This document shows, piece after piece, positions 33,386-33,950 of a stretch of DNA of 42,072 nt; position 1 is the first letter of the stretch, and each line of letters starts with the position of its first letter. This DNA comes from Shigella phage phiSD1. The stretch lies in sequence record PQ571306; one strand, 5' to 3'. The notes below the pieces were generated by a model. It saw nothing but the letters and a program-made list of their open reading frames with translations. It was not told the origin of the DNA and did not search any database. The translations under genes and the position numbers were made by a program.

Positions 33386-33730
33386 TCATTTGCATTTCTC
33401 GTCGTATGTTTGTTGTAACTGCGACAGACGATTACCGGCTGTCATCTCGTCCATAGAAGGCCCGGCGCCCGTGTCCATAAAGAACAGCGGAACAATCAGG
33501 AATGCGCCTGTAACACCGAGTACAACGTTAGTACCTATTTGCTTATTAACACGGTGCGTAGCGTTGGCTTGAGCTTGTTTTGTCGTGGCGATTCTCGATA
33601 GTAACTGATTACATGTTGCCGTTGTATCCCCTGCCTGATAAACCTGTAAAGCCGGGTCTGGCAACGACCTTACGCAACCACTCAAACAAACGGCTACAAC
33701 ACCTGCTACTGCTAATTTAATATATTTCAT
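33386..33730 (-). CDS. Lipoprotein (lipobox LSGC) with an additional hydrophobic segment
   Basis: Signal peptide ending AVCLSGC; hydrophobic stretch NVVLGVTGAFLIVPLFF. Confidence 0.6.
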   Translation of the reverse strand: MKYIKLAVAGVVAVCLSGCVRSLPDPALQVYQAGDTTATCNQLLSRIATTKQAQANATHRVNKQIGTNVVLGVTGAFLIVPLFFMDTGAGPSMDEMTAGNRLSQLQQTYDEKCK

Positions 33731-33828
33731 AGTTCACCATTACCCGTGTCAATGTCACCAATACCGCTACAAGCCCAAAGAAACATCACCGCATCAACTG
33801 CAATTACTACTGAAATAACGACTAACAT
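33727..33828 (-). CDS. Small transmembrane peptide (33 aa), coupled to the lipoprotein gene
   Basis: RBS ggggagg; stop overlaps lipoprotein ATG; hand-derived. Confidence 0.3.
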   Translation of the reverse strand: MLVVISVVIAVDAVMFLWACSGIGDIDTGNGEL

Positions 33829-33852
33829 GACGGCCTCCCCGGTTCGATAGAA

Positions 33853-33879
33853 TGAATAGTACCCTATTATATTGGGGTG
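33853..33879. promoter_or_regulatory. 27-bp promoter-like element, copy B (identical to 113-139)
   Basis: Reverse complement TATAAT lies 37 nt upstream of the TM-peptide ATG. Confidence 0.4.
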
Positions 33880-33950
33880 CGCAAACTATTTGTTTATGTA
33901 TTCCGGTTATTCCACTCAATTGTAAATGTTGGAATAAACTATTCGAATAG

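Follow-up and report, generated by a model that had tools for sequence, protein, structure and literature searches.

Among the small lipoproteins encoded by phages, Cor (phi80, N15, and T1) and Llp (T5) carry a lipobox and act on FhuA, and their genes lie by those for the receptor-binding protein or the tail. Llp contains a disulfide and, in the virulent phage T5, is expressed from a dedicated promoter. P22 SieA (phrog_7745) is a small envelope protein carried as a moron, encoded after gene 16 and before mnt/arc/ant/tailspike; it is a multi-pass inner-membrane protein whose gene is on the strand opposite to gene 16. The T4 Imm family comprises small, two-helix inner-membrane proteins of virulent phages. 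On other mobile elements, the lipoproteins TraT, TrbK, and IncC Sfx keep related DNA out (PMC11493245).

The 114-aa lipoprotein considered here, the product of gene B in a three-gene cassette of Shigella phage phiSD1, resembles each of these in part, and its comparison with known superinfection-exclusion families returned no significant match. B shares its small size, lipobox, and phage-encoded origin with Cor and Llp, and like Llp it is served by a dedicated promoter within a virulent phage genome; its cassette, in contrast, lies in the head module, and its invariant apolar motif has no counterpart in Cor/Llp. With SieA it shares small size, an envelope location, and carriage as a moron, and homologues of B occupy the very site of sieA, but these homologues are lipoproteins encoded on the strand of gene 16. 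BLASTP between B and P22 SieA gave E = 6, and B did not match phrog_7745, neither of which places it among SieA-like proteins. Members of the Imm family are likewise small membrane proteins of virulent phages, and in phage Golestan an Imm-family gene and the B cassette share a promoter motif; B differs in being a lipoprotein, and at E ≤ 1 it matched nothing in Pfam, PF14373 included, under conditions in which the positive control, Golestan gp22, scored E = 1.3e-13. As for TraT, TrbK, and Sfx, one member of the B family is encoded after traH-traG in an integrative and conjugative element (ICE), the only conjugative context found for the family, but these proteins are unrelated to B in sequence and size (286 aa for Sfx against 114 aa).

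Layout and transcription of the cassette

The window, that is, the whole 42,072-nt stretch of DNA analyzed, is a complete Kagunavirus genome. Its minus strand carries an operon at 33318–33884 that consists of a promoter motif, a ribosome site, genes for a 33-aa peptide (A), the 114-aa lipoprotein (B), and a 25-aa peptide (C), and an intrinsic terminator. The operon occupies a variable slot flanked by a Hoc-like head decoration gene (32828–33289, plus strand; phrog_3945, E = 4e-86) and by Rz/Rz1 (34203–34698, from the RefSeq annotation of relatives), the latter at a distance of 470 bp. More than 15 kb separates the operon from the tail fiber and tailspike genes, and the holin and endolysin genes are also located elsewhere. 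An Rfam search of the cassette region gave no match. A sequence-only reading of this DNA had described 33-aa and 114-aa minus-strand ORFs, an LSGC lipobox, an extra hydrophobic segment, a promoter-like element, a terminator, and a position between head genes and spanins, all of which were borne out here. It had also taken the operon to consist of two genes; A and B do appear to be co-transcribed, but a third gene, C, had been missed, and A and B are separable in relatives.

The promoter motif (33853–33884, minus strand) reads TTGCGCACCCCAATATAATAGGGTACTATTCA and includes a perfect −10 element, TATAAT, at 33858–33863 on the minus strand, inside a recurring 32-nt motif with an inverted repeat, AATAG..CTATT. 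The layout of this promoter class is TTGCACAC-N6-TATAAT-AG..ACTATTCA. The 32-nt motif is repeated with 97% identity at 113–144 (=42044–42072), and related copies are found at 21296 and 22565, both on the plus strand. In all four copies the motif is followed by a Shine-Dalgarno sequence and then by an ATG that starts an ORF, and the promoter 20-mer occurs four times against zero expected by chance. A search for a sigma70 −35 element accompanying the cassette promoter returned no good match. A promoter on the opposite strand, the sole sigma70 consensus match there, was considered and dropped because the four motif copies share the order motif, Shine-Dalgarno, ATG. The motif is kept in phages K1H, SETP13, and L031 and missing from K1ind1, and the fBC-Eco01 record annotates the cassette promoter as a PHIRE "phage promoter".

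Transcription of the cassette would run leftwards from this promoter, which appears to belong to a small phage promoter class that also heads the other accessory island and a cluster of small ORFs. Since the class is shared with that island and that cluster, the cassette is placed outside the surrounding structural-gene transcript. The other island is a second minus-strand accessory slot (41692–42018) headed by an identical promoter motif, and in the sister phage Golestan this slot holds the Imm_superinfect gene gp22 (PF14373, E = 1.3e-13). Translation of gene A is served by a Shine-Dalgarno sequence, GGGGAGG (33834–33840, minus strand; read from the sequence), 5 nt 5′ of the ATG; K1H and every carrier of the cassette keep it as GGAGG. 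At the other end lies a bidirectional intrinsic terminator, AAAGCCCCnnnnGGGGCTTT (33293–33313, both strands), a hairpin with T-runs on each side that ends the minus-strand cassette and the plus-strand Hoc-like gene alike; it is retained in relatives with compensatory changes in loop and stem.

Gene A (33727–33828, minus strand) encodes a single-pass membrane peptide, MLVVISVVIAVDAVMFLWACSGIGDIDTGNGEL, of which the first 20 aa are hydrophobic and the tail, GNGEL, is acidic; its stop overlaps the start of gene B as ATGA. The gene is intact across six aligned phages, with five synonymous and four conservative changes, and the homologue that stands alone in K1H is 55% identical with a dN/dS of 0.20; in one genome the start codon is mutated from ATG to ACG. 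It is known from Kagunavirus only: the peptide had no match in PHROGs or Pfam, and a degenerate DNA pattern for the gene matched a single contig (41,632 bp) in IMG/VR. Gene C (33318–33395, minus strand) encodes the hydrophobic peptide MQMTNSVMFYFVLWVSAAAITAMFI and is unannotated in every record examined. An alternative start, the ATG at 33389, would give 23 aa and overlap the lipoprotein stop as ATGA. In the divergent variant of L031 gene C has the same length, with eight synonymous and seven conservative changes (pN 0.14, pS 0.91) and with the other two frames closed, although phiEc4 and K-02 carry a W14R substitution.

Purifying selection acts on all three genes, and the dN/dS of gene B, measured against a variant with 82% identity, is 0.11. 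The low dN/dS of B and A, together with homologues of B found to E = 1e-16 and beyond, indicates that these are real genes and not chance ORFs. They are nonetheless separable, as K1H has A alone and L031 has B without A. A search for conserved small ORFs beside distant lipoprotein homologues found none, and peptides A and C are therefore regarded as specific to Kagunavirus; in nearly all other genomes B is present alone, without A or C. The two peptides would be separable helpers of the lipoprotein or independent small effectors.

The cassette is present in about 10 of 180 Guernseyvirinae records, and approximately 95% of close relatives are without it. In its place, the slot is empty in K1ind1, holds only the 33-aa gene in K1H, the lipoprotein and the 25-aa gene in L031, and an endonuclease VII gene in SETP13. 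B occurs at 99–100% identity in 10 phage records, and a search of complete E. coli genomes found no copy of the cassette at the DNA level. Existing entries (Golestan gp05/gp06, fBC-Eco01_07/08; phrog_13472) read "hypothetical protein" with no function given, and the HSE2 record labels B a "putative structural protein" without evidence. With its own promoter and terminator, independent orientation, and patchy occurrence in close relatives, as judged from sequence, the cassette can be classed as a moron-like, optional accessory operon inserted at a recombination hot spot in the genome of a virulent Kagunavirus. As it is missing from about 95% of close relatives, it is also placed outside the lysis program.

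The lipoprotein and its family

Gene B (33386–33730, minus strand; phrog_13472, E = 1.2e-44) encodes a lipoprotein precursor that begins MKYIKLAVAGVVAVCLSG-C19, with a signal peptide at residues 1–18, the lipobox LSGC, and Val at position +2. The n-region, h-region, and lipobox are those of a Sec/SPII lipoprotein. By these sequence rules B would leave the cytoplasm through Sec and receive its acyl anchor at Cys19, and Lol probably then takes it on to the outer membrane, since the +2 residue is Val and not Asp. The mature protein is laid out as a linker, a helix at 40–72, an apolar motif, and a second helix at 93–112, with cysteines at 40 and 113. The apolar segment, VVLGVTGAFLIVPLFFM, spans 17 residues (codons 69–85; 33476–33526, minus strand) between N68 and D86 and has a mean KD of 2.47 over 15 aa.

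AF2 models built from 20 and from 95 sequences (pLDDT 63 and 69, respectively) both show a helical hairpin, the apolar tip being the low-confidence part in each (about 50). Foldseek searches with these models against PDB and BFVD gave nothing below E = 1, only generic alpha-hairpins (AcrA/EmrA, WXG100) coming up, and a sequence-profile search of PDB gave nothing relevant. Mature B is probably an antiparallel helical hairpin whose base is stapled by a Cys40–Cys113 disulfide. Its tip would form a re-entrant membrane wedge or a surface that binds a membrane protein; it is not read as a transmembrane helix because both flanks of the loop would be periplasmic.

A profile search at E ≤ 1e-3 retrieved at least 1,479 clusters of homologues, which share the signature N-x-x-LGVTGAFLIVPLFFMD, a 17-residue apolar motif between two helices. 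The order of elements in the family is lipobox, NPV..Q.GD...C, helix, N-x-x-LGVTGxFLIVPLFFMD, and a helix ending in K-x-C, and B fits it. Among 95 homologues the lipobox Cys is present in every one, with L, V, or I at −3, S, A, or V at −2, and G or A at −1 throughout, and the +2 residue is A, G, or V but never D. Exactly two further cysteines are found in 93 of the 95. The apolar run measures exactly 17 aa in all 95, with N68, L71, G72, G75, P81, F84, and D86 invariant, and the net charge is +1.2 before the run and −2.05 after it (n = 95). B itself possesses all invariant columns of the family (C19, D35, C40, N68, L71, G72, G75, P81, F84, D86, R101, L105, and C113). No family member matched a described domain when 10 long members were compared with Pfam and 95 members with NCBIfam. 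Across Pfam, NCBIfam, PADLOC, and PHROGs, the cassette products matched only phrog_13472, of unknown function; B and the 33-aa peptide had no match in PADLOC-DB at E ≤ 1, and literature searches found no characterization of the B protein.

The closest homologues of B (38–45% identity) come from P22-like prophages in Citrobacter, Kluyvera, and other bacteria, where they directly follow ejection gene 16. At least six distinct P22-like prophages carry a B homologue at the sieA position, and no sieA-like gene was found at that position in the prophages with a homologue. Further mobile contexts include Alcaligenes prophages, where homologues lie between N and cI or adjoin an Acb2-like gene; T7-like Aeromonas phages, where they lie in the early region; a satellite, where the homologue adjoins the integrase; a Seleniivibrio ICE, where it follows traH-traG (a single case); a Rep3 plasmid; and a locus beside a DUF4011 helicase-nuclease. 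In 40 records of Rhizobium megaplasmids, a homologue is situated inside a two-partner secretion operon, between tpsB (ShlB/FhaC) and tpsA, which encodes a haemagglutinin-like protein with a TPS domain. A tblastn search with gp16, gp20, gp7, TraG, TraH, and integrase against 93 new loci added only three P22-like prophages from IMG/VR and a few integrases.

A confinement of the family to mobile elements was rejected on the basis of GTDB neighbors. In 80 species-representative genomes the neighbors are mostly housekeeping genes (PepA nine times, pilin-like N_methyl six times, GatB twice, tRNA synthetases, and others), and homologues also occur in the reduced genomes of the endosymbionts Rickettsiella, Wolbachia, and Mycoavidus. 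As most sampled members have housekeeping neighbors, this is not a family dedicated to phage exclusion. These neighbors, together with the two-partner secretion operon of Rhizobium, indicate that the family originally served a general envelope function, which the phage copy may exploit.

Candidate functions of the cassette

Genomic context leads us to favor, tentatively and at somewhat less than an even chance, a role for B in superinfection exclusion acting on the envelope of the infected cell. We are guided to this by the nearest homologues, which hold the sieA position in P22-like prophages without a sieA-like gene; by the homologues in a prophage immunity region, in early regions, in a satellite, and in an ICE; and by the promoter motif, which also drives the slot containing an Imm-family gene in Golestan. 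By altering the envelope, B would stop secondary phages from delivering their DNA; the block would come after adsorption, at the step of the periplasm or membrane conduit. Such an action would be analogous to that of P22 SieA, T4 Imm, and TP-J34 Ltp and would involve no receptor masking. Against exclusion, homology to Cor, SieA, and Imm and the PADLOC models are all negative for B, housekeeping neighbors predominate in the family, and the ICE context is one case.

The sequence-only reading had also proposed exclusion, specifically by a Cor/Llp-type factor. The exclusion part agrees with the function best supported by genomic context, but the Cor/Llp part is not supported, given the lack of Cor homology and the glycan receptors of these phages. 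A lipoprotein that inactivates an outer-membrane phage receptor by binding it, in the manner of Cor and Llp on FhuA, would account for a small phage lipoprotein gene that, like llp in T5, is driven from the opposite strand by a promoter of its own, and for the absence of Asp at +2, which suggests outer-membrane sorting. A weak PHROG match to Cor (phrog_1119, E = 0.29) points the same way, but it is nonsignificant and covers residues 1–37 only, that is, signal peptide, and B has no other similarity to known families. The cassette sits by head genes, distant from the tail fiber and tailspike genes. Kagunaviruses are reported to depend, through their tailspikes, on O-antigen or K1 capsule glycans, and they have no known protein receptor for the lipoprotein to plug (PMC11990801). 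Homologues are moreover found in phages with different receptors (P22-like and T7-like Aeromonas phages) and in nonphage contexts, and we regard receptor blockade of this type as highly improbable. That a unimolecular spanin was the lesser candidate had been argued from the presence of an Rz/Rz1 pair, and we concur. A lipobox, a second hydrophobic segment, and adjacency to spanin genes would suit a protein that links the membranes as T1 gp11 does, or another lysis protein. The Rz/Rz1 pair is complete, however, and the hydrophobic segment is internal (69–85 of 114), only 17 aa long, separated from the anchor by just about 50 residues, and flanked by charges that break the positive-inside rule for an N-out/C-in helix. 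It is followed by a conserved helix that ends in an invariant Cys. Hundreds of homologues lie in bacterial chromosomes by housekeeping genes, and most Kagunaviruses are without the gene, all of which makes a lysis protein barely credible.

Two further readings direct B at something other than competing phages. In the first, which we consider unlikely but deserving of weight, B would reuse the housekeeping role of its family to stabilize the infected cell's envelope or to remodel it, for example, in lysis timing, resistance to lysis from without, outer-membrane/peptidoglycan tethering, or stress signaling, with the micropeptides as optional additions. The housekeeping surroundings of most sampled bacterial members, reduced endosymbiont genomes included, are consistent with this, as are the proximity of Rz/Rz1, only 470 bp away, and the combination of a lipid anchor, a helical hairpin, and a hydrophobic tip. 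In other phages, however, the gene lies away from the lysis genes, its sites in mobile elements are classical exclusion or moron slots, and about 95% of close relatives lack the cassette. In the second, B would be an "immunity" lipoprotein directed against contact-dependent or two-partner-secreted toxins, colicins, or conjugative DNA entry, to the benefit of the infected or carrier cell. The Rhizobium homologue between tpsB and tpsA (40 plasmid records) and the homologue after traG in one ICE fit this idea, and a hint of carrier states comes from an E. coli blood isolate whose assembly contains a complete Kagunavirus genome as a circular "plasmid". These contexts are nevertheless few and heterogeneous, a virulent phage with a short cycle would gain little, and B does not resemble any known immunity or entry-exclusion protein; immunity of this kind is improbable.

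Exclusion at the envelope, the preferred reading, can be extended to the family as a whole, although we think it decidedly unlikely that its members are widespread, previously unrecognized periplasmic "conduit blockers". In such proteins the hydrophobic LGVTGAFLIVPLFFMD tip on a disulfide-stapled hairpin would jam or mis-target trans-envelope channels, among them the ejection-protein and tape-measure conduits of phages, conjugative T4SS entry, and TPS/CDI toxin import. A generic module of this sort, independent of any receptor, might have been captured repeatedly by P22-like prophages, T7-like and Kagunavirus lytic phages, satellites, ICEs, and plasmids, and the 33-aa and 25-aa peptides would then be Kagunavirus-specific membrane partners.

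If B does act in superinfection exclusion, it would represent a new protein family for that task, with no relation to Cor, Llp, Ltp, SieA, or Imm, and a receptor-independent mechanism in glycan-targeting phages that are under development for therapeutic use and synthetic biology. The gene that stands in for sieA in many P22-like prophages would likewise gain a function. Should exclusion prove wrong, B still belongs to a conserved, unannotated envelope lipoprotein family of Proteobacteria, reduced-genome endosymbionts among them, with a striking invariant motif. The cassette itself constitutes a compact set for the study of cooperation between micropeptides and a lipoprotein, of which nature provides the variants A only, B with C, and A, B, and C together.

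An optional operon in a variable head-module slot

The window begins and ends with exactly the same 141 nt (1-141 and 41932-42072), which identifies the sequence as a complete, circularly permuted Kagunavirus genome from a circular assembly, with 41,931 bp unique. Kagunaviruses are Guernseyvirinae siphoviruses infecting E. coli. The cassette, a minus-strand operon at 33318-33884, lies in a region that matches Escherichia phage BUCT823 at 99.9% identity and other Kagunavirus phages at 94-99%. The RefSeq annotation of phage Golestan, used as a guide, places it in the head module, flanked by a Hoc-like head decoration gene (32828-33289; phrog_3945, E=4e-86) and the Rz/Rz1 spanin pair (34203-34698, annotated in Golestan), after which come the scaffold and then the major capsid genes.

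This location, between head genes and spanins, agrees with an earlier sequence-only reading of the window, which had described a coupled two-gene operon with its own promoter-like element and terminator. Both genes were located: a hydrophobic 33-aa ORF (33727..33828, -), preceded at 5 nt by a strong Shine-Dalgarno sequence (GGGGAGG), overlaps in an ATGA with the ORF of a 114-aa lipoprotein (33386..33730, -) bearing a canonical lipoprotein signal, MKYIKLAVAGVVAVCLSG followed by Cys. Their dN/dS values of 0.20 and 0.11, respectively, each against the most divergent partner available, show them to be genes and no chance ORFs. The promoter-like element contains a perfect TATAAT (33858-33863, -) inside a recurrent 32-nt motif, and a bidirectional intrinsic terminator was found at 33293-33313. 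What had been overlooked is a third gene of 25 aa, hydrophobic throughout (33318..33395, -), whose second ATG overlaps the lipoprotein stop, again as ATGA. This ORF is kept at equal length and character in a variant with DNA just 71% identical there (pN 0.14 vs pS 0.91), and the remaining two frames are closed. Both small peptides are under purifying selection and restricted to Kagunavirus, and for each there is some natural genome that does without it; coupling is not obligatory.

When the intergenic regions of relatives were aligned, the slot between the Hoc-like gene and Rz/Rz1 proved to be a hot spot with conserved sequence on both borders. It holds a terminator alone in phage K1ind1, the 33-aa gene, lipoprotein and 25-aa gene in about 10 of 180 records, and an endonuclease VII gene behind the same promoter/SD region in the Salmonella Jerseyvirus SETP13. 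A metagenomic relative (L031) carries the lipoprotein at 82% identity, with an SD of its own and a GTG start, and the 25-aa gene, without the 33-aa gene. The 33-aa gene is itself a free-standing unit of the slot, since phage K1H (NC_027994.1) holds an unannotated homologue alone (563-754, -; 55% identical, MMVAISFVLLVNLGLFVWAVSGVEDADSGNGEL), with the same promoter and SD, the terminator directly after it and no lipoprotein. These varied contents indicate that the cassette is an optional, modular accessory unit, a classical moron, though the phage is virulent. One complete Kagunavirus genome has been deposited as the 'plasmid' pC16EC0033-2 (CP088689.1; 44,086 bp, circular) of E. coli C16EC0033 from human blood, with an identical lipoprotein and the 33-aa start codon changed from ATG to ACG; the record gives a hint that this nominally virulent phage may enter a carrier state or pseudolysogeny.

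Signature, predicted fold and distribution of the lipoprotein family

The cassette products matched no model of Pfam, NCBIfam or PADLOC, and the sole profile match of the lipoprotein was phrog_13472, function unknown. A single-sequence search retrieved 20 homologues, a profile search of a word-indexed database 1,047 matches, and an exhaustive search at least 1,479 clusters at 50% identity. Pfam domains were found in none of 10 long members and NCBIfam matches in none of 95 members. The family signature, read from an alignment of 95 homologues, comprises (near-)invariant features: the putatively acylated Cys, Q-x-G-D-x4-C, N-x-x-L-G-V-T-G-x-F-L-I-V-P-L-F-F-M-D, R-x3-L and a C-terminal K-x-C. 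The mature part contains exactly two further Cys in 93/95 homologues, and the apolar run spans exactly 17 residues in all 95, with a net charge of +1.2 ahead of it and -2.05 behind. Under the E. coli sorting rule, the +2 residue, which is Ala, Gly or Val and never Asp, would send the protein to the outer membrane by way of Lol.

AlphaFold2 models (pLDDT 63 with 20 sequences, 69 with 95) display helices at precursor residues 40-72 and 93-112 (confidence 78-88), with the apolar motif as a low-confidence tip. Cys40 opens the first helix and Cys113 lies just past the end of the second. Given that both Cys are invariant and sit at the base of the modeled hairpin, the natural reading is a disulfide staple, which would leave both flanks of the apolar segment periplasmic. 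The extra hydrophobic segment noted in the sequence-only reading is therefore read here as a putative re-entrant wedge or protein-binding tip rather than a membrane-spanning helix. Neither Foldseek against PDB and BFVD nor a profile search of PDB sequences returned a significant match.

Among the closest relatives (38-45% identity, Enterobacterales), the great majority are genes of mobile elements. In P22-like prophages of Citrobacter, Kluyvera and other hosts, six distinct versions lie 50-100 bp past ejection-protein gene 16 and precede the mnt/arc/ant/tailspike region, a position occupied in P22 by sieA; no SieA-like gene was found among their neighbors. Other copies are flanked by genes for an 853-aa virion protein and a tail fibre (two IMG/VR prophages), lie between an N-like antiterminator and the repressor or adjoin an Acb2-like gene (Alcaligenes lambdoid prophages), occupy the early region upstream of primase (T7-like Aeromonas phages), adjoin the integrase of a satellite-like element, or reside on a Rep3 plasmid, in an IS-rich islet flanked by queA and tgt, and directly behind traH-traG in a Seleniivibrio ICE. 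Such sites are classical locations of exclusion and defence cargo.

Across 80 species-representative genomes, many of them reduced genomes of endosymbionts, the immediate neighbors are mostly housekeeping genes (PepA 9, pilin-like N-methyl protein 6, GatB, tRNA synthetases, gyrase and others). In one chromosomal subfamily, the gene has on one side a divergently oriented gene for a pilin-like protein (about 130-145 aa, with an N-terminal methylation motif) and on the other a convergent leucyl aminopeptidase gene, pepA; several endosymbiont lineages keep this order (Rickettsiella, Wolbachia and other Pseudomonadota MAGs). The family gene also lies inside a two-partner secretion locus, with tpsB on one side and tpsA on the other, in 40 Rhizobium plasmid records; in R. 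leguminosarum pRLG202 (NC_011366.1, 1597-8339), for example, the locus runs IalB-like, TpsB (ShlB/FhaC), family lipoprotein, two unknown proteins and TpsA (TPS domain). This conserved non-phage context may be a pointer to the ancestral function. The housekeeping and two-partner secretion neighbors thus suggest some general envelope role for the family, of which phage and prophage copies would be captured versions; the ancestral role was probably mundane.

Shared promoters and possible function

The 32-nt motif holding the cassette -10 recurs at 113-144 (=42044-42072) with 97% identity, and related copies occur at 21296(+) and 22565(+). All four share the order TTGCaCAC, N6, (T/C)ATAAT, AG, N4, ACTATTCA, ~15 nt, GAGGAG and ATG, which indicates that the cassette promoter points leftward. 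The near-identical copy, at 42044-42072(-), heads another accessory island on the minus strand, set among the tail genes (41692-42072 and 40496-41626) and encoding a 108-aa protein and a metallophosphatase. The 108-aa product (41692-42018, -), from the first gene of the island, has a signal peptide and belongs to phrog_14165, function unknown. Golestan lacks this gene; in its place stands one for a 63-aa member of the T4 Imm family of superinfection-immunity proteins (PF14373, E=1.3e-13), which the window phage lacks. This swap suggests that the promoter class heads variable slots for small envelope proteins, one of them from a recognised exclusion family.

We tentatively favor the reading that this is an accessory cassette for the envelope and that its lipoprotein would most likely exclude superinfecting phages, at a post-adsorption step. 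Receptor masking of the Cor/Llp type, as previously proposed, is not supported: the match to the Cor PHROG (E=0.29) covers the signal peptide alone and reflects no homology, and the cassette is unlinked to a receptor-binding gene. Moreover, Kagunaviruses are reported to rely, through their tailspikes, on O-antigen or capsule glycans, with no known protein receptor (PMC11990801).

The housekeeping contexts make a non-exclusion envelope role, in lysis timing, membrane stabilisation or stress, a serious rival to exclusion, albeit a rather unlikely one. Immunity to other envelope-crossing agents, to which the TPS and traG contexts point, appears improbable. A unimolecular spanin, already disfavored in the sequence-only reading, is very unlikely: Rz/Rz1 is present, the hydrophobic segment is short, lies within the protein and has the wrong charge for a C-terminal anchor, and the family is common in bacterial chromosomes. 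Should exclusion be confirmed, the lipoprotein would represent a new family with a task of a known type. The cassette genes are already deposited as 'hypothetical protein' (Golestan gp05 and gp06, for instance), and a PHROG already covers the family; new are its recognised signature and size, the finding that it takes the place of sieA, the modular nature of the slot, the third gene, previously unannotated, and the promoter common to the cassette and an Imm-type slot.

Half-sites and a conserved noncoding element

A half-site, GAATAGT/ACTATTC, occurs at ~10 promoter-like sites (114, 15736, 17852, 17896, 21287, 21320, 22589, 33854, 33938/33945 and 42045) as the inverted repeat AATAG-N4-CTATT. 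It lies within the spacer from TTGACA to the -10 in minus-strand promoters of replication genes and immediately downstream of the -10 in cassette-type promoters, and looks like a candidate operator of a phage-encoded regulator controlling several transcription units.

Directly right of the cassette is an ultra-conserved noncoding element (33935-34200, +). Its perfect 16-bp palindrome, AACTATTCGAATAGTT (33936-33951), adjoins a sigma70-like promoter, TTGACT-17-TAAGCT (33953-33981, +), and a strong intrinsic terminator (34159-34178) closes the ~200-nt stretch just ahead of the Rz start codon. The element is present in 180/180 Guernseyvirinae records found by search (Kagunavirus, Jerseyvirus and Raoultella RP180), with ≥95% identity in 172, far above the flanking genes. 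Most records leave it without annotation; some annotate a 36-40-aa ORF, whose N-terminal frame is shifted between genomes by a 1-nt indel. A search of Rfam gave no match. The predicted RNA fold (z=-2.8) displays a compensatory change in one stem, and the element may serve as a phage sRNA or a regulatory leader.
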